A DNA stretch of 64,000 nt, from IMG/VR virus record IMGVR_UViG_3300002026_000003; one strand, 5' to 3'. The notes under the pieces were generated by a model. That model worked only from the letters and a program-made list of their open reading frames with translations. It ran no database searches and was not told where the DNA came from. Shown piece after piece: positions 3,627 through 57,120 of this stretch. A program made the translations under genes and the position numbers. Source of the stretch: a virus. Numbering within the stretch: the first letter of the stretch is position 1; every line of letters starts with the position of its first letter.

Positions 3627-4085
3627 ATGACTGATTTTAACGAAAAATACGATAAAAATGACCCAAAAATAGCCACAAAACTAGCGTATGTAGAGGAATT
3701 AAACGCCAGAACGGCGGCTAAAATTGCTAGCTGGCAGGATATGTACGATGAACTGCGCAATATGGGGCGTGGTTATATGGATGATCCTACGAAAGAAACG
3801 GCAGATTTAACCATTCTGGCCTTTATGTCATTCATGCTTGCCCTAGAACAGCTACCTGACGAGGGCGACATAGCAGTAATAGCCAGAAAGATGAACGAAA
3901 TAATGGTTATGCGCACTGACCTTACCGGAGCTACTGTATATGTAGGCGAGGAAGCAGACCAACAACGCGCAACTGCGGCTCTTATGGGCGCAGCAGTGAT
4001 GGCTCAAGTAATAACGGCTCTGAGTCAGCAAGAAGAATCACCCAAAGAGGCCAAGGCTACAACAGTCAAGCCGGTGTTGCACTAA
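3627..4085 (+). CDS. hypothetical protein (152 aa)
   Basis: AAGGAG upstream; ORF track; stop overlaps the next start (TAATG). Confidence 0.6.
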   Translation: MTDFNEKYDKNDPKIATKLAYVEELNARTAAKIASWQDMYDELRNMGRGYMDDPTKETADLTILAFMSFMLALEQLPDEGDIAVIARKMNEIMVMRTDLTGATVYVGEEADQQRATAALMGAAVMAQVITALSQQEESPKEAKATTVKPVLH

Positions 4086-5164
4086 TGGCCGGCAGAGTAC
4101 GCAAGACGCAGATTGATCCTACCACTATTCGACTATCTGAGCATTTTCTACTTAGTGATTTCATGGGTTGTAATTCTGTGTACACTAAAGGCCTAAAAAA
4201 TATATGGGATGGTGACGATGGCAAGCTAGCTGAAGGTACACATCTATGCGCCACGCTACTTGAACCCATACTAAGCACCTATGGCCCCGCCTCCGTTTCG
4301 TATGGGTACATATCGCCAGCCTTGAGTAAGCAAATAGTGACGTACCAAGACCCAGATATGCCGTCATACCATAGGTGGGATAAAGGAGCGGCAGCGGATT
4401 TATGCGTCCATGCGTGGGTTAAACGCAAGGCACCCATATTTTTAGCGCACGAAATAGACCAGACACTAGACTATTCTAGGATGATTACGTACTCTGAGAG
4501 TCCGTTTATATGCCTAGCAACACAAATTTCTGAAGGTAGCTCCCCAAGGAAGGCGTTTTATGAAAATAGGTATTGTGGGAAAAAGGGCGCGAAGCCTCAA
4601 TACATTAGGAAATCTAACAGTAGCAAGGTCAAAGCTAAAGAAGCTGAGACGCTTGTACTTGAATTTGACTGGAAAGGGGCGGGTTATCCTACCTATCATG
4701 GGGGAGGGATACGGCAACTACACCATAATCGTGTATCGCGCTATAGCGTTGTATCCGACTTTCTATATTCAACGTACGCAATACGTGAGGGGGTTGCGAA
4801 TGTACCAGACCTACAACGCTTTGCTGAGCAGTTTAGGCAGGCAGGAGCAACCTATGATTCCCTGCTAGAGAAACTAGACGTACCTAAGCTTAGTATTGTT
4901 CGCGGTTTTGAGTCATTCAGATTTAACGACTACCCGCTTTTTAGCTGGAAGGATAATTTTGCAATTGATTTCAAACCTCCAAGCTACTTATCGGCAAATG
5001 ACATAGCCACCGCAGCACAAGGACTACCTCATGTGGTTTCGGTAGGGGTTGATAACACTACGGGCACCGCTCGTATCATAGGAAAGCCTATACAGCGCGA
5101 GGGAACTACTACAGGTAGAGTATCGGGTAGGGCAAGTCATGCTAGCAATAGGCCAAAAGCGTGA
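4085..5164 (+). CDS. putative peptidase M15A-like protein, tandem domains (359 aa)
   Basis: N-terminal half has LSEHFLLSDF ... SYHRWDKGAAADLCVH (SxHxxGxAxD-like zinc peptidase motif). The C-terminal half repeats the pattern in degenerate form (YSVVSDFLYS ... NFAIDF). Confidence 0.4.
   Translation: MAGRVRKTQIDPTTIRLSEHFLLSDFMGCNSVYTKGLKNIWDGDDGKLAEGTHLCATLLEPILSTYGPASVSYGYISPALSKQIVTYQDPDMPSYHRWDKGAAADLCVHAWVKRKAPIFLAHEIDQTLDYSRMITYSESPFICLATQISEGSSPRKAFYENRYCGKKGAKPQYIRKSNSSKVKAKEAETLVLEFDWKGAGYPTYHGGGIRQLHHNRVSRYSVVSDFLYSTYAIREGVANVPDLQRFAEQFRQAGATYDSLLEKLDVPKLSIVRGFESFRFNDYPLFSWKDNFAIDFKPPSYLSANDIATAAQGLPHVVSVGVDNTTGTARIIGKPIQREGTTTGRVSGRASHASNRPKA
4959..4974. repeat. motif copy 2
   Basis: TTGCAATTGATTTCAA (1 mismatch). 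Inside ORF 4085, read as FAIDFK. Confidence 0.75.
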
Positions 5165-9075: not shown

Positions 9076-10532
9076 GTAAGAGTACAAAAAGGCTGGATGG
9101 CGTTGACGAAATAGTGACAAAACAAGTTGAAGTGAGTAAACTTGTGCAACCAAAGTTCTTGACGCTTACTGAAAAGCCAGCAAATCAGGTAGCGTTCAAG
9201 GTTGTTCGTGATGACAAGGGTGAGGAACCTAATATGACCAAGACAAGTGCCGTGGCTACGGAAGGTCGTCGCCACCGTATCCGCTCCACGAAACGCTCAT
9301 CTCTTCTGTACATTGAGTTTCCAGAGGGCACTACCGCTGATGAAGCTAAGGCGGCTATGGAGGAGTATGGCCTTGAGGATTATGAGCTTGTGCAGGATGG
9401 CGATAAAGTAAAGTGCAAGCGTAGCGATCTTGCCGAAATCCCAGCTAACGCTATTACCGTGCAGATTGGCGAGGGACGTAAAGCTGGCATACTTCGTTCA
9501 GAGGTACCAGTAGCTGAAATGCAAGACACTATGCCGAATATTTCGGTTGTTGCAATCGAATTCAAAAATGAGGTATTCGCAACAACTGAGGCCGTCATGG
9601 CATATTTGACGCGCCACGATATTGACTTCCTAGAAAAAGGAGTCGAAAATACCGACTCATGTATTCGTGTTACCCGTAGCGAGTACGCGGAAGACGCAGA
9701 GCTTCGCCGTGTAGAGGTAGAAACTGGCGTAGTTGCGGTAGTTACTCGTGCTGAAATATCTGATATAGTAGACGCTATTCCGTTTATTGAAGTAGTATCG
9801 GAGTCAGCATACGGTCAGTGGGGTTGGGGTCAACTAGATTTCGGCGCTCGTATGGCGGATGTAGAGTTCTGTGAGTCGGCGGAAGAGGCAACATCTACTC
9901 TGCGTCGCGTGGTGGAAGATATTTTGTTTTACAGTCAGTTGCCTGTTTCGGTACGGAAAGAACTGGTAATTCGGGCTGCGTCTCAATTCTCGGCGTACGT
10001 CGGCTCTTTGCTCGATGCACTCCCCGCGAAAGTAGTTTTACTCAACCGTTCCAATTTGGAAAAACTCAAGGAGCATAGTATGACCCAGAAGACCGAAGTT
10101 ACCGGGGCGGAAGGTCAAATTGCTGAGCGTAAGGACGATGCTACGGCTACGCCGGAAGTTAAGACCGAAGCTACGCAAGATGACAACACGCCAGTTACCC
10201 GCTCGGAATTGAAGAGCATTATTGGTGAGGCCGTGTCCGCTGCTCTCGCTGCCCAAGCTACCCCCGCTAAGGCTGAGGAAACGAAGCGTAGCGATGAGGA
10301 AGTAAAAGACAGCAAGGAAGGTGACAAGGCTGATGGTGAAAGCAATACCCTGAAGGCTGTCGAGGAAGTAGTTACTCGTTCTGTCGGTGGGCTTGCTGAT
10401 GCAGTTAAGACGATTGGTGATCGTTTGACAGCAATCGAAGGGGCCACCACTGTTCGCTCCGATGGAGTGGATAGCGCAACGTCCCAGCCGAAAGACCCGT
10501 TTGTTGGGATTTTTTCCCACGGTCGTAAGTAA
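9072..10532 (+). CDS. scaffolding-like / head accessory protein (486 aa, acidic)
   Basis: Lies between protease and major capsid. Has an acidic, low-complexity, Ala/Glu/Lys-rich C-terminal third. Confidence 0.45.
   Translation: MSKSTKRLDGVDEIVTKQVEVSKLVQPKFLTLTEKPANQVAFKVVRDDKGEEPNMTKTSAVATEGRRHRIRSTKRSSLLYIEFPEGTTADEAKAAMEEYGLEDYELVQDGDKVKCKRSDLAEIPANAITVQIGEGRKAGILRSEVPVAEMQDTMPNISVVAIEFKNEVFATTEAVMAYLTRHDIDFLEKGVENTDSCIRVTRSEYAEDAELRRVEVETGVVAVVTRAEISDIVDAIPFIEVVSESAYGQWGWGQLDFGARMADVEFCESAEEATSTLRRVVEDILFYSQLPVSVRKELVIRAASQFSAYVGSLLDALPAKVVLLNRSNLEKLKEHSMTQKTEVTGAEGQIAERKDDATATPEVKTEATQDDNTPVTRSELKSIIGEAVSAALAAQATPAKAEETKRSDEEVKDSKEGDKADGESNTLKAVEEVVTRSVGGLADAVKTIGDRLTAIEGATTVRSDGVDSATSQPKDPFVGIFSHGRK
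9550..9565. repeat. motif copy 5
   Basis: TTGCAATCGAATTCAA (1 mismatch). Inside ORF 9072, read as VAIEFK. Confidence 0.7.
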
Positions 10533-53561: not shown

Positions 53562-53600
53562 GGCCCTTGGAATTCGTTTCGAGGGCCTTTTTGTTTTTTT
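53562..53600 (+). terminator. intrinsic terminator upstream of AAA+ gene cluster
   Basis: GGCCCTTG...CGAGGGCC stem followed by TTTTTGTTTTTTT. Confidence 0.75.
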
Positions 53601-53614
53601 GCAATCGATTTCAA
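53599..53614. repeat. motif copy 22
   Basis: TTGCAATCGATTTCAA (exact). Its first TT is the end of the terminator T-run; 71 nt before ATG 53685. Confidence 0.9.
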
Positions 53615-53684: not shown

Positions 53685-55340
53685 ATGGACATAACTAGCA
53701 GTCACGCACAACGCCATTCTGAAAGAGACTTTTCAGTGAAGTTCTCCACGTACGTAGATTCGGGGGCAGGGATCATCCATGTGCGCACCAATGAGATAAT
53801 CCGCGCATCTATTGCCGTACGTACTCAGGCCATTCTGGATAACGGAACGGTCAAGGAGTGGGATGTAGTTAATGGTTTCCGTACCTACACCAAGGATAAT
53901 GTAGATAACGTACTGATTGCAGGCGATGCCAATATTGACATTGGCTCTGCCTTCTCTTCCCCGTTGGATCAGTTGCGCAATTCATCCAGCGAGGATGGTG
54001 TGTTTTACTTCGTCTATGTAAATCCCCATGTATTCATGGAGAACAACCCGACACTGACACAATTGCTTATTACCTATAGCCATGCACTACCATCCAAGAA
54101 TGTAATTGTGGTATTGATTACTCCAGATGCACCATTACCTACTGAGGTAGATGCGAATATCCTCTCTATCCATTTTGAGCCACCCGGACTAGGTGAGTTG
54201 AAGGACGCGCTCAGCGGTATCCTAGACGGGGTTAGCGGAGACTTTGAGGATGGAGTGGACATGGACGAAGCTGCCGTAGAGAAAGTATGCTACGTTGGCG
54301 CAGGTATGACTAAGAACCACTTTGAGATGTATGCTGCTTTGTCTATAGTAGAGGCGGGTCGCGCTGGCAAGGATTCAGTCAATGTCGATGACCTTATCAA
54401 AGGCGTATCGATAGGCAAGACTGATGTAGTCAACTCCAACGATATCTTAGAACTGTATCCCTCCACCGATATCAATAACGTAGGCGGTCTGGAGAACTTG
54501 AAGGATTGGGTACAGAAACGGCGTAGCTGCTACTCGGATGCGGCTAAGGACTTTGGTATTGAGCCACCTAAGGGAGTGGTCTTGGTAGGCCCTCCCGGTA
54601 CTGGCAAGAGTCTTATCGCCAAGGCTATCTCATCTGAGCTTGGGGTTCCTCTAGTACGTCTAGACTTTGGGCGGGTATTCAACTCGCTGGTAGGGGCCTC
54701 AGAGCAACGCATGAGAACGGCGCTGAAGATGGTAGAGATGATGAGTCCTTGCGTACTATTCTGCGACGAGATAGACAAGGGTCTAGGCGGCATTGGCGGT
54801 AGCGGGGATAGCGGTACCAGCAACAGGGTACTAGGCTCGTTCCTTACTTGGCTACAGGACTGCCAGCATCCAGTATTTGTCATGGTAACTGCCAACAACG
54901 TAACAGGACTTCCGCCAGAGATGCTTCGCCGTGGCCGCTTTGATGCTATCTTCTCTACGTCTTTGCCTAACTCTAAAGACAGGCGCGAGGTACTACGCAT
55001 CCATCTGAAGTTGCGTAAGCGTAAGCTGGAGAGCTTTAATAAGGACGACGTTAATGAGATTGTTAATCTCTCTGAAGGATATGTACCCGCAGAGATTGAA
55101 TCTGCCGTAAAGGATGCTCTGGTTGACGCGTACAATGCGGACGAAGAGATGGGTATGCAGCATGTCAAGAAAGCATTACTGTCTATGGTTCCGTTGTCTA
55201 AGGCCTTCGCTAGACAGATTCAGGAAATGAATGAGTGGGCAAAAGCAAACGCAACGCCGGCAGGCATCGACTCAAGTTCTGCTACAGAGACAAAGGTAGC
55301 AAATGCTCGGCGTGTCAGTACTAGGAGCAGGGCGAGATAA
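53685..55340 (+). CDS. AAA+ ATPase (classic AAA, Ycf46/FtsH-like module)
   Basis: GVVLVGPPGTGKSLIAKA (Walker A), VLFCDEIDK (Walker B), TANNVTGLPPEMLRRGRFD (SRH/Arg fingers). Confidence 0.85.
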   Translation: MDITSSHAQRHSERDFSVKFSTYVDSGAGIIHVRTNEIIRASIAVRTQAILDNGTVKEWDVVNGFRTYTKDNVDNVLIAGDANIDIGSAFSSPLDQLRNSSSEDGVFYFVYVNPHVFMENNPTLTQLLITYSHALPSKNVIVVLITPDAPLPTEVDANILSIHFEPPGLGELKDALSGILDGVSGDFEDGVDMDEAAVEKVCYVGAGMTKNHFEMYAALSIVEAGRAGKDSVNVDDLIKGVSIGKTDVVNSNDILELYPSTDINNVGGLENLKDWVQKRRSCYSDAAKDFGIEPPKGVVLVGPPGTGKSLIAKAISSELGVPLVRLDFGRVFNSLVGASEQRMRTALKMVEMMSPCVLFCDEIDKGLGGIGGSGDSGTSNRVLGSFLTWLQDCQHPVFVMVTANNVTGLPPEMLRRGRFDAIFSTSLPNSKDRREVLRIHLKLRKRKLESFNKDDVNEIVNLSEGYVPAEIESAVKDALVDAYNADEEMGMQHVKKALLSMVPLSKAFARQIQEMNEWAKANATPAGIDSSSATETKVANARRVSTRSRAR

Positions 55341-55350
55341 GGAGGCAAAA

Positions 55351-55366
55351 ATGCAATCGATTGCAA
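55351..55366. repeat. motif copy 23
   Basis: ATGCAATCGATTGCAA (1 mismatch). Position 1-3 is the start codon (MQSIAI). Confidence 0.8.
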
Positions 55367-55959
55367 TTGGTTATGGCAAAGTGACTTTCTCTACGGCATC
55401 CGCGACACTCGCGGGTTTCGTAGTGGAGGCCCCTTTCATCCGCACACTAACGTCAAAGAAGCTGCCTAAGATAGGCGGCACTATGCGTATCCCGGTAAGC
55501 AGCCATCCTGAGATTGATGGTTGGTTGTTTCAGGACACGGTACATGCACCTGACGGCACTATCGTTATGGTGCAGATGCAGTACAAGTACAGAGGTTCTG
55601 GTTTGCGGGATGGGGCTATATTCGTACGTACCCGTACTGAGGGTAGCGGATTGTTGATTGCGGCTAAACTACCAAGTGATCCGCGCTCTACTATGGGTAC
55701 TAATAGGCATCCGCTATTCGCAGGGTGGGGCGATATTATGACGGTAGAAGAACTAGCTAAGTGCGGTATTGAGCCTCCCAAGAATTTTATCAGCGCATTC
55801 ATGGAGCCTGAGGAAATCGATGAGTGCTTTGACATAACGGTTACCAGACCCCCAGTATCACTACCTCCCTTGGAAGAGACCAGAGTTTCATCAAGTGGGG
55901 AAGAAGTGACGATACGGATAACCCGTACTCAGCGTAGAATGCGTATTCGTAGGACGTAG
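55351..55959 (+). CDS. hypothetical protein (202 aa)
   Basis: ATG 55351 follows AAGGAGG, so the track start at 55303 was rejected. The start codon and first 5 codons (MQSIAI) are motif copy 23. Confidence 0.6.
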   Translation: MQSIAIGYGKVTFSTASATLAGFVVEAPFIRTLTSKKLPKIGGTMRIPVSSHPEIDGWLFQDTVHAPDGTIVMVQMQYKYRGSGLRDGAIFVRTRTEGSGLLIAAKLPSDPRSTMGTNRHPLFAGWGDIMTVEELAKCGIEPPKNFISAFMEPEEIDECFDITVTRPPVSLPPLEETRVSSSGEEVTIRITRTQRRMRIRRT

Positions 55960-55960
55960 A

Positions 55961-55998
55961 CATACAGATTTGACAAAGAAATCTATATGTGCGATAAT
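55961..55998 (+). promoter_or_regulatory. strong sigma70-type promoter upstream of DUF1257/DUF2997 genes
   Basis: TTGACA (55970-55975)-17 nt-GATAAT (55993-55998). About 28 nt are near-identical to the element at 63344-63381. Confidence 0.6.
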
Positions 55999-56028
55999 AC
56001 CTAGTGCGGTAATTTTAAGGAGAGGCAT

Positions 56029-56475
56029 ATGAGCCATACTACAGAAGTGAATGATATCGTATTCTCTGATATCGAAGCGTTGAAAGCAGCAGTGAATGAA
56101 CTTAACACTAGAGGAGTTAAGTGCAGTCTAGTTAAGGGCGGCACCCCACGCGCTTACTACCAGAACCAGCAAGGTATGGGCGCTGCGGATTACACGCTTC
56201 AGTTGGCTGACTCCCCGTACGATATTGGTTTCTATCGGGACAACGCTAAGAAAGGCCTTGTAGCCCGTACTGATCTTTTCATGGGTCACGTATCACGGTT
56301 ACTTGGTGCGCAAGGCCAGACCGGGGAGAAAGCAGAACAGGCAGCACTAGGTAAGCTTTACCAGACCTACGCAATTCATGCCGCTACGCGTAAAGCAGTG
56401 CAGCAGGGTATGTCAGTAAAGCGGGTGAATAATTCGGACGGTAGCGTACGTCTTGTGGTTGGGGGTATTCGATAA
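56029..56475 (+). CDS. DUF1257-like protein
   Basis: MSHTTEVNDIVFSDIEALKAAVNELN...YDIGFYRD follows the remembered DUF1257 pattern (MSH..I...I.D...L..AL..L ... YDIGF). Confidence 0.55.
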   Translation: MSHTTEVNDIVFSDIEALKAAVNELNTRGVKCSLVKGGTPRAYYQNQQGMGAADYTLQLADSPYDIGFYRDNAKKGLVARTDLFMGHVSRLLGAQGQTGEKAEQAALGKLYQTYAIHAATRKAVQQGMSVKRVNNSDGSVRLVVGGIR

Positions 56476-56675
56476 TGGCTAAGCAGATCGTAATTGATAT
56501 TACCCCTGCCGGATCGGTAAAGGTAGATGCTCAGGGGTTCAATGGAGTTGGGTGTGACAAGGCCACTGAGATGATCGAGATTGCCATCGGTGGGGCTGGC
56601 GTAAAGAAGAAGACTAAGAAGCCTGAGTACTACGCACCGGCAGGACAAAAGGCATCCAATAAACTAGCGTTTTAA
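56475..56675 (+). CDS. DUF2997-like protein
   Basis: KQIVIDITPAGSVKVDAQGFNGVGCDKATEMIEIAIG follows the remembered DUF2997 pattern. TAATG coupling to the DUF1257-like gene. Confidence 0.55.
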   Translation: MAKQIVIDITPAGSVKVDAQGFNGVGCDKATEMIEIAIGGAGVKKKTKKPEYYAPAGQKASNKLAF

Positions 56676-56685
56676 GGGGTATAAC

Positions 56686-57081
56686 ATGGGCGAACTGGTC
56701 ATAGCTTTTGAGGTTGATGGTAGGCTGGAGGCGTTGCACTTAGACAAGTTTGATCTTGGCTTCCTTGGTGCTAAAAGTATTGCTAGGCAGTCAAGCATTG
56801 TCTGGAATGAGATGGCCCAGAATTGGGCTATACATTACCACGCTGGCGAGGAACGGGTTATGCACGAAAACCTAGACGGCTTCTCTGGGTATGATGAAGC
56901 GCGTGAGTTTGAGGTGCTATGGCTTAACAACTGTAGGCTGTATCAAGTAACCCCGGAAAGCTACCTAGGCCTTATGTACGCCGGCTACCTACGGTATGGT
57001 GATAAAACAGAGTGCTTCACCCTACCTGACGGTTCTTGTATAGGCGAAGCTTGCATGCACTGCGTTACCCATAAGACGTAG
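56686..57081 (+). CDS. hypothetical protein with C-terminal Cys cluster (131 aa)
   Basis: ORF track. C-terminus is CFTLPDGSCIGEACMHCVTHK. Confidence 0.55.
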   Translation: MGELVIAFEVDGRLEALHLDKFDLGFLGAKSIARQSSIVWNEMAQNWAIHYHAGEERVMHENLDGFSGYDEAREFEVLWLNNCRLYQVTPESYLGLMYAGYLRYGDKTECFTLPDGSCIGEACMHCVTHKT

Positions 57082-57084
57082 TGC

Positions 57085-57120
57085 AAAAAAATCCCCACCG
57101 AGATTTCTCTCAAGGTGGGG
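57085..57120 (-). terminator. hairpin that reads as an intrinsic terminator only on the minus strand
   Basis: AAAAAAAT-CCCCACC-(14 nt)-GGTGGGG. On the minus strand the 7-bp GC stem is followed by ATTTTTTT. No T-run follows it on the + strand. Confidence 0.3.

Follow-up and report, generated by a model that had tools for sequence, protein, structure and literature searches.

A conserved phage gene block joining a classical AAA+ ATPase to DUF1257 and DUF2997 proteins, with a core trio common to phages and plasmids

This report deals with a block of five genes in a 64,000-nt stretch of viral DNA (IMG/VR record IMGVR_UViG_3300002026_000003), which we will call the window. The block occupies positions 53685-57081 and is made of five co-oriented open reading frames (ORFs), all on the + strand, in the order AAA-ORF2-DUF1257-DUF2997-ORF5 (Table 1). 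Their number, strand and positions agree with those given in an earlier note on this DNA. They are followed by a 478-aa helix-turn-helix (HTH)-like gene with the look of an initiator, then by a ~190-aa gene, DnaB and PolA. The module is real and strictly conserved, and its core trio, formed by the AAA+ ATPase, the DUF1257 protein and the DUF2997 protein, is common to phages and plasmids; we regard this part as solid. A public run contains the same contig, and the genome of the phage has a full length of ~102 kb. When the block was compared by megablast with 50,697 phage records, no near-identical phage came up. Its genes are annotated as hypothetical in the published phage genomes, and the AAA protein (over its whole length), DUF2997 and ORF5 all fall in PHROGs families that have no assigned function. 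Each of the five ORFs is preceded by a Shine-Dalgarno sequence. The mechanical call of ORF2 begins at 55303, and we favor a start at 55351, since an AAGGAGG motif, which overlaps the AAA stop codon, is found 5 nt before this ATG and since the homologues begin with MQSI.

Table 1. Genes and sequence signals of the block, in window coordinates.
Feature	Position	Strand	Description
Intrinsic terminator	53562..53597	+	GGCCCT...AGGGCC hairpin (53562-53587) and T-run; closes the upstream ligase/p83 unit
Palindromic phage-wide motif	53599..53614	.	TTGCAATCGATTTCAA; 70 nt upstream of the AAA start
AAA+ ATPase	53685..55340	+	551 aa; PHROG 8638 over full length
ORF2	55351..55959	+	202 aa; no Pfam family
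Second palindrome copy	55352-55366	.	Spans the ORF2 start codon
Sigma70-type promoter (predicted)	55970..55998	+	TTGACA-17-(TG)GATAAT, in the 69-nt gap before DUF1257
DUF1257/Ycf35-family protein	56029..56475	+	148 aa; Pfam above gathering cutoff
DUF2997 protein	56475..56675	+	66 aa; Pfam, full-length model
ORF5	56686..57081	+	131 aa, acidic; PHROG 38408, no Pfam family
GC-rich hairpin	57093..57120	.	CCCCACC/GGTGGGG, 14-nt loop, 3' of ORF5; read from sequence

The product of the first gene, which had been read as a classic AAA protein, indeed carries all the corresponding features. Pfam PF00004 matches residues 298-424 (E 3.8e-29), and one finds the Walker A (GPPGTGKS, 302-309), Walker B (VLFCDEID, 357-364) and sensor-1 (TAN, 402-404) motifs, as well as the second region of homology (SRH) with its two Arg fingers (PEMLRRGRFD, 411-420). 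Walker A and Walker B are kept in 16/16 aligned orthologues, and AAA_lid_3 aligns at 455-488 with 21.5 bits, below its cutoff of 27.2. The protein is thus laid out as an N-domain (1-~260, net charge -18), a single classical AAA module (~285-500), a conserved C-terminal helix (501-526) and an Arg-rich tail (541-551). The best match of the module among PDB sequences is VAT (3e-61), and its closest families are VAT/CDC48 D2, PAN and FtsH, all with scores far below the family cutoffs. Pore loop 1 reads NSLVG in the subclade of the window, with a Leu and not an aromatic residue, while it takes the canonical aromatic form SK[WFY][VI]G in the SM1-type orthologues and [LI]VG in the plasmid homologues. 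The N-domain is acidic in all orthologues (net charge from -5 to -22), and no relative of it was found with a 14-sequence profile against the PDB or with Pfam on 14 N-domains. We also considered that it could be a degenerate second AAA domain, which is not supported (hhalign of the N-domain against the AAA module, probability 3.6%).

In one related contig (L004, IMGVR_UViG_3300043399_000487; 244-2712), a ~290-aa intein with an HNH domain sits exactly in the Walker A loop, so that GPPG is followed by the C...HN of the intein and then by TGKS. Among the 120 AAA homologues listed, 11 reach ~850 aa, and Pfam recognizes Intein or HNH domains in several. Inteins are maintained in proteins that are indispensable to the element, at their conserved sites, and most of these proteins act in DNA metabolism. 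Together with the universal presence of the gene in the phage lineage, the P-loop intein therefore points to a core function of the block rather than to a dispensable accessory one. The earlier note had preferred a non-core, anti-defense or accessory role, which is not favored by the fixed position of the block in all members of the lineage nor by this intein in some relatives.

In ORF2, a beta-rich folded domain (1-~170) is connected by a flexible linker to a C-terminal RRMRIRR peptide. Its AlphaFold model has a pLDDT of 87, with low confidence for the last 30 residues. When compared with the PDB by Foldseek, this model has no relative (best E 0.036, TM <=0.32), and in BFVD it matches only the SM1 orthologue (TM 0.88, 25% identity) and two unnamed phage proteins. 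The RRMRIRR peptide is invariant at the extreme C-terminus of the close homologues (n=23, all metagenomic). A basic C-tail is found in 3 of the 77 + strand ORFs of the window, and two of these three are the adjacent AAA and ORF2. Across the relatives, C-terminal peptides of the [RK]R[VMIL]x[IVL][RK][RK] type are found on the AAA proteins (ARRVSTRSRAR and TRVMRRTRRGA, for example), on ORF2 and on the extra proteins that are inserted after ORF2, whose tails read RKVNLRKRRT, RRLKLRRDRK, KRTITINKRR and, for RcTiptonus gp66, KRVINLSTRRKK. The combination of these basic tails with the acidic N-domain of the ATPase suggests that adaptors or clients may dock on this N-domain by means of a peptide.

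The DUF1257 and DUF2997 assignments, together with the TAATG overlap through which the two genes had been described as coupled, were borne out by profile searches and by the sequence, respectively. With a gathering cutoff of 22.2, DUF1257 (PF06868) reaches 28.2 bits, its residues 42-143 aligning to positions 18-103 of the 103-position model, and DUF2997 (PF11211) reaches 40.0 bits for a cutoff of 24.1 (model positions 1-47 of 47). The phage DUF1257 proteins form a peripheral subfamily of ~148 aa that scores 17-38 bits against Pfam and whose N-terminal third lies outside the model. The precomputed Pfam flag for DUF1257 is present on most homologues, and the MSHTT N-terminus is near-invariant in 120 phage homologues. 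In SM1 (L001, KU245542), the DUF1257 gene gp29 (L001:9166-9609) is annotated from an internal start at 9229, and the conserved MSHTS N-terminus starts 63 nt upstream of this annotated start, overlapping the end of gp28. In two loci, a NUMOD4-HNH homing endonuclease is inserted between DUF1257 and DUF2997 (L004:3899-4432 and L005:4359-4883), which breaks the translational coupling seen elsewhere. In DUF2997 itself, a single Cys is invariant and falls within G-x-G-C-x-x-A-T; there is also a basic segment, KKPE[FY].

The AF2 model of DUF1257 (pLDDT 90.7) has a beta-alpha-beta4-alpha3-beta2 topology for which Foldseek gave no fold match in the PDB (best E 0.09, TM <=0.32). The profiles of DUF1257, ORF2 and the AAA N-domain gave nothing significant against PDB sequences, HydE being found at E 0.04 over ~43 residues. 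A RecA-like match of DUF1257 (PDB 3cmu/3cmt, E 1.6e-7) was rejected as an artefact, since it adds up matches of 6-12 bits over six fused RecA copies and spans their artificial linkers. The confident models of DUF1257 and ORF2, which have no PDB relatives, suggest that these proteins adopt unexplored folds. Searched against 1.84 billion proteins, the profile of the phage-type DUF1257 retrieves 679 representative clusters (E < 1e-3). Ten of the best 150 clusters were looked up, and all were on contigs of less than 90 kb. The tail of this search is still made of phage-type proteins with weak Pfam scores and does not reach the canonical Ycf35. In one genome per GTDB species, the patterns used revealed no relative of the phage-type DUF1257, and no prophage copies were detected; a viral scan with a single DUF1257 protein gave no match. 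PADLOC and NCBIfam had no match for the four small proteins of the block, and in the literature we found no study that gives a biochemical function to DUF1257 or DUF2997, nor any that describes the trio as a system.

ORF5 combines a conserved acidic core of ~105 aa (FDLGFLG...WLNxCR) with a lineage-specific Cx7Cx4Cx2C tail, encoded at 57013-57063. It had been labeled a Cys-cluster protein with a CxxxxxxCxxxxCxxC spacing, and both points need to be corrected. The actual spacing is C110-x7-C118-x4-C123-x2-C126, with x7 and not x6 in the first interval, and the four-Cys tail is missing in 16/17 orthologues, including those of phages with a ~80% identical AAA, so that the cluster is not a defining feature of ORF5. 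The orthologue of the closest relative, L023, keeps three Cys and a His (C-x7-C-x4-C-x-H), and ORF5 has no Pfam match to a ferredoxin, a rubredoxin or a zinc ribbon. In this same relative (L023:7334-8422, contig of Logan SRR11476867), the ORF5 orthologue extends to 362 aa, and the extension opens with a prepilin-type N-methylation motif, GFTLIEVAIVLAIL (Pfam N_methyl, 23.7 bits); judging from this motif, it would be a pilin-like segment, either fused to ORF5 or read through from it.

The regulatory signals divide the block into two units, in keeping with the differential regulation that the earlier note had proposed. The terminator and motif before AAA, the motif-embedded start of ORF2 and the promoter at 55970 were all found in the sequence, and both the terminator and palindrome before AAA and the promoter before DUF1257 are conserved in the relatives. 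The predicted promoter at 55970-55998 is the sole 11/12 match in the whole window, for 0.41 expected per strand from shuffled sequences. Sigma70-like matches overall are not enriched (7 found vs 7.2 expected). A TTGACAAAGAA-type promoter recurs upstream of DUF1257 in the relatives. In particular, it is kept as cTTGACAAAGAA, with a TATAAT-like -10 hexamer 17-18 nt downstream, in L023, L021, L010/11, L006, L008 and L338C, and the versions of L023 and L021 are 12/12 matches. In L013-L015 and L019, one finds instead of the promoter a palindrome, TGCAATCAATTGCA, directly before the ribosome-binding site of DUF1257. Ahead of the AAA gene, a hairpin with a T-run is also present in L004, L008, L010, L014-L016 and L019-L021, and the succession of a terminator and a related palindrome recurs in most relatives. 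At the other end, the 3' limit of the block is the hairpin that precedes the 478-aa HTH-like gene; it has an A-run upstream and no T-run downstream, and the terminator scan made no + strand call there.

The palindrome that stands before AAA is a 16-bp element, TTG[C/A]AATCGATT[G/T]CAA, also written TTGCAATCGATTGCAA, which is ~20-fold over-represented in the window. There are 20 exact AATCGATT cores, and the 10-mer gives 44 strand matches vs 2.2 expected. It is usually found 10-25 nt before a start codon and often just past a terminator. Its 20 sites include 2932, 11574, 19357, 30364, 37576, 39242, 48651, 52235 and 53599, and further on 55352, 57631, 60454 and 63515. In distant relatives, these positions are taken by related palindromes (TGCAATCAATTGCA). 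This element is probably the operator, or an RNA element, of a phage-wide regulator.

The conservation of the block was examined in ~25 distinct phage loci, taken from three annotated phage genomes, 18 IMG/VR contigs, four further metagenome contigs, phage HJ05 and a Rhizobium 'plasmid' of 109 kb that has the look of an L338C-like phage. The ATPase has relatives along its whole length, at 33-43% identity, in Pseudomonas Samunavirus (SM1, PaMx31, PA_L9), in Rhizobium L338C, RHph_I4 and P11VFA, in Agrobacterium JP1, in Aeromonas HJ05 and in Rhodobacter RcTiptonus and RcDurkin. AAA, DUF1257, DUF2997 and ORF5 follow the same order in every sampled phage locus, down to 33% AAA identity, and the order downstream is fixed as well (a ~470-aa gene with weak HTH matches, a ~190-aa gene, DnaB and PolA). 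By profile HMM, ORF5 was recovered in every phage locus, including RcTiptonus (gp65), and ORF2 in all of them but RcTiptonus, which has a positional counterpart. Some phage lineages carry variable extra genes between ORF2 and DUF1257.

The Rhizobium record mentioned above (L024, NZ_CP071625.1, Rhizobium bangladeshense 'plasmid p7', circular, 109,431 bp) carries a tail fiber, a lysozyme, the AAA module, DnaB and a DNA polymerase in the order of L338C and has the size of L338C; what was deposited as a plasmid seems to be the genome of a phage or a phage-plasmid. The PolA encoded downstream of DnaB has an N-terminal UDG-family domain (precomputed Pfam UDG + DNA_pol_A), in the window from ~60.7 kb onward, in L022 from 11363 onward, and likewise in L023 and L025. 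L025 (a contig of GCA_044343285.1) also encodes, two genes upstream of AAA, a 68-aa Acb2/Tad1-hairpin protein of the anti-CBASS/anti-Thoeris sponge type (3993-4199, Pfam E 6.6e-13); at this place, the window encodes an unrelated protein of 83 aa.

The ATPase is not restricted to phages. A tblastn search against 72,556 plasmids revealed full-length homologues that share the N-domain, and eight of these plasmids were examined through their record annotation and our own HMMs. By BLASTP, the N-domain of the window matches that of Geminocystis (E 8e-10) as well as it does the phage orthologue of RcTiptonus (6.6e-8), and it also matches the proteins of Pseudanabaena, Bacillus, Treponema and Manganitrophus (E 1e-7 to 2e-4). 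On 6/8 plasmids, the DUF1257 and DUF2997 genes are located <=3 kb from the ATPase gene. The link between the DUF pair and a Ycf46-like AAA ATPase, which the earlier note had put forward, is found by neighborhood analysis in every sampled phage of the lineage and on cyanobacterial and Nitrospirota plasmids. The gene order varies: it is DUF1257-DUF2997-(small gene)-AAA in Nostoc PCC 7120 (pCC7120alpha) and Nostoc ATCC 53789, and AAA-DUF1257-DUF2997 on the plasmid of Ca. Manganitrophus (a Nitrospirota metagenome-assembled genome). On the plasmids of Planktothrix and Geminocystis (L029, pGM3709_04), the ATPase lies near both DUF genes. In Pseudanabaena galeata (pPg_01; L031, 129.8-138.0 kb), all of them belong to one tightly spaced same-strand gene run that reads GrpE, Hsp70-family protein, DUF1257, AAA_21 ATPase, hypothetical protein, DUF2997, AAA and a 734-aa WD40 protein. 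In both L031 and L029, an AAA_15/AAA_21 (AbiEii/OLD-like) ATPase is found within or beside the trio cluster, with a small partner or an RloB-family protein.

Sequence motifs also unite the two sets of elements. The MSH N-terminus and the YD[IV]GF motif of DUF1257 are common to the phage and plasmid copies, five of six aligned plasmid homologues starting with MSHF. The same is true for the GxGCxxAT and PE[YA] motifs of DUF2997, whose core is found in seven plasmid homologues. No counterpart of ORF2 or ORF5 was found on the examined plasmids; these two genes are thus additions limited to this phage lineage, and the conserved core is the trio AAA-DUF1257-DUF2997. The mobile elements that carry this trio belong to three phyla at least, Pseudomonadota (phages), Cyanobacteriota and Nitrospirota. 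A chromosomal DUF2997-ycf35-fed7 cluster has been described in cyanobacteria (PMC4284462), and ycf35 and ycf46 are among the four red-algal plastid genes whose presence tracks marine versus freshwater habitat (PMC5940233).

How could these genes work together? The reading that we prefer, and to which we give an even chance of being right, is that of an AAA+ machine that remodels proteins, in which DUF1257-DUF2997 would be the dedicated partners and ORF2 an adaptor or client docked by its tail. It would be a core machine, expressed early and carried by mobile genetic elements. The single-ring classical ATPase would be expected to form a hexamer that grips its clients and unfolds them or pulls them apart, and the acidic, family-specific N-domain would select the clients or the cofactors. 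DUF1257-DUF2997 would most likely be a small heteromeric cofactor, a regulator or a dedicated client of the ATPase. The functional link between the ATPase and the DUF pair is supported by their adjacency in ~25 phage and 6/8 plasmid loci, in different phyla and in different gene orders. ORF2 is built like an adaptor, and its Arg-rich C-terminal peptide could dock on the acidic N-domain in the way the SspB tail does on ClpX. Expression would proceed in two units, AAA-ORF2 after the terminator and palindrome, then DUF1257-DUF2997-ORF5 from the predicted sigma70-type promoter. As for the target, our leading guess is the replication-initiation complex of the element itself (initiator, loader, DnaB), which is encoded directly downstream. 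Lambda, P1, Mu and RK2 need remodelling by the host DnaK-GrpE, ClpA or ClpX. This precedent, together with the fixed site upstream of the initiator-like gene, DnaB and PolA, the intein, the universal presence of the block and the operon shared with Hsp70 and GrpE in Pseudanabaena, is what argues for such a target.

Several points weigh against this interpretation. DUF1257, ORF2 and the N-domain have no structural relatives, so that there is no independent functional anchor, and a gene order that stays constant inside a single phage lineage may be due to common descent alone. The ATPase is also found without the complete DUF pair: the Bacillus cereus plasmid (L033) has AAA and DUF2997 only, with no DUF1257, the Treponema plasmid (L030) has AAA without either DUF gene, and in mycobacteriophage Corndog the neighbors of the ATPase show no DUF1257 or DUF2997. 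The classical AAA clade is not known to include replication loaders. Finally, two independent modules would also account for the separate promoter and for the variable inserts found between ORF2 and DUF1257, and the plasmid neighbors, which are often of the toxin-antitoxin or defense type, fit a conflict function at least as well as replication. On the two plasmids that lack DUF1257, a ~200-aa radical-SAM/Fer4_12 protein gene precedes AAA (L033:2912-3553 in Bacillus cereus and L030:4339-4947 in Treponema); it may represent an alternative partner set of the AAA lacking DUF1257.

The possibility of two independent modules, namely that the block joins two unrelated neighbors, an AAA-ORF2 unit and a separate DUF1257-DUF2997-ORF5 unit with, for instance, a redox- or metal-linked function, seems improbable to us. 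It would account for the conserved promoter that DUF1257 has of its own, for the inserts, including homing endonucleases, that separate ORF2 from DUF1257 and DUF1257 from DUF2997, for the chromosomal DUF pair found with the ferredoxin Fed7 and no AAA (PMC4284462), for the four-Cys tail of ORF5 in the window and for the Bacillus, Treponema and Corndog AAA genes that do without DUF1257. It does not, however, explain why AAA adjoins both DUF genes in ~25 phage loci and 6/8 plasmid loci with varied orders, and the Cys tail is not conserved.

We hold the possibility of a conflict function to be rather unlikely. Here the phage or plasmid unfoldase and its partners would serve anti-defense or host takeover by dismantling host proteins, candidate targets being defense complexes and protease or toxin effectors; in one variant, the ATPase might act as a neutralizer of the IetA/SgiA type. 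The presence of the trio on mobile elements, both phages and plasmids, goes along with this, as do the plasmid neighbors (zeta toxin, RloB with an ATP-binding protein, AbiEii-like AAA_21 ATPase, PIN, Fic and JAB), the Acb2/Tad1-hairpin gene located close to AAA in L025 and the strong, host-type character of the predicted promoter. The ATPase also scores on IetA models (PADLOC 5.5e-25; NCBIfam IteA 72.9 bits), but this score is to be compared with a cutoff of 510 and is lower than those obtained with CDC48, FtsH and PAN, which is why we consider, from these sequence comparisons, that the resemblance to IetA is a generic AAA similarity. Moreover, anti-defense genes are usually patchy, whereas the block is present in every member of the lineage at a fixed site and with a P-loop intein in some, and there is neither an S8 protease nor another effector partner, the four small proteins having no PADLOC match.

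A last reading, which we judge very improbable, is that of a general proteostasis helper, a disaggregase or foldase that would act during the phage burst on no specific client. The classical AAA unfoldase features and the operon with Hsp70 and GrpE in Pseudanabaena are compatible with it. Yet the block sits in the early/replication region and not among the structural genes, its dedicated and conserved small partners argue for specificity, and the ATPase has no ClpB-type middle domain and no second AAA ring.

The interest of the block goes beyond this phage. Ycf35 (DUF1257), DUF2997 and Ycf46 are conserved in cyanobacteria and algal plastids, and these long-unexplained proteins receive no biochemical function in the papers that were retrieved. 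Here, a Ycf46-like AAA, DUF1257 and DUF2997 travel as a unit throughout a lineage of phages that infect Pseudomonas, Rhizobium, Aeromonas and Rhodobacter and can be cultured, and also on plasmids from several phyla. The phage module is small and accessible to genetics, and it could be used to identify the clients and what the two DUF proteins do. If it acts in replication initiation, the element would bring its own replacement for the host DnaK/Clp remodelling on which lambda, P1, Mu and RK2 rely; if it acts in host takeover or counter-defense, it would be a weapon of a new class, based on an unfoldase. An AAA+ unfoldase with adaptors would be of a known kind, and there is a real chance that this one is a distinct, widespread system. 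We can also venture a broader and more doubtful proposal. The trio could be an undescribed, self-contained, three-part remodelling system spread by phages and plasmids, of which Ycf46, Ycf35 and DUF2997 would be the chromosomal and plastid descendants. It would act when the element establishes itself, either by activating its own replication initiation without host chaperones or by dismantling host proteins, and in DUF1257-DUF2997 one would have an AAA+ cofactor of a new type, whose fold has so far been unseen in solved structures.

Among the known systems to which the block can be compared is the Ycf46/Ycf35/DUF2997 set of cyanobacteria and plastids (COG0464 for its AAA). The DUF1257 and DUF2997 proteins of the block pass the Pfam thresholds, and the MSH N-terminus described for Ycf35 (PMC13060386) is near-invariant in the phage DUF1257. 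The ATPase of the Nostoc, Geminocystis and Planktothrix plasmids has the same architecture, with a ~250-aa N-domain, one AAA module and a C-terminal helix, and the JGI label 'SpoVK/Ycf46/Vps4 family' carried by the ATPase homologues is a COG-level label only. The phage DUF1257 is, however, peripheral to the Pfam family, and the chromosomal ycf35 is reported beside fed7 and not beside an AAA gene. Ycf46 has been associated with KaiC and with responses to stress and CO2 (bioRxiv 10.1101/2025.07.21.665879), associations that have no obvious counterpart in phages.

The ClpX-SspB pair is comparable in the way it works only. In both cases there is one AAA+ ring with a separate N-domain, and ORF2, with its folded body, its flexible linker and its conserved docking-type C-terminal peptide, would be used like SspB if this peptide does dock. 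The AAA of the block is nevertheless classical and does not belong to the HCLR clade, ORF2 has no sequence or fold similarity to SspB, and there is no peptidase partner. With CDC48, VAT, PAN and FtsH, the ATPase shares Walker A/B, sensor-1, the SRH with two Arg fingers and, below cutoff, AAA_lid_3. It differs from CDC48, which has two AAA modules and a double-psi-barrel N-domain, by its single AAA module (TIGR01243, 119 bits vs a cutoff of 802.65), and from the whole group by an N-domain that has no Pfam or PDB relative and by the lack of a protease domain and of a HbYX tail. Finally, IetAS/SgiAT, which associates an AAA ATPase with a subtilisin-like protease, is carried on mobile elements (PMC10954446), as the block is, and the AAA module scores on the IetA models; this score is far below the cutoff, the partner genes are different, with no S8 protease in the neighborhood, and IetA, with ~370 aa, is devoid of the N-domain that characterizes the ATPase of the block.

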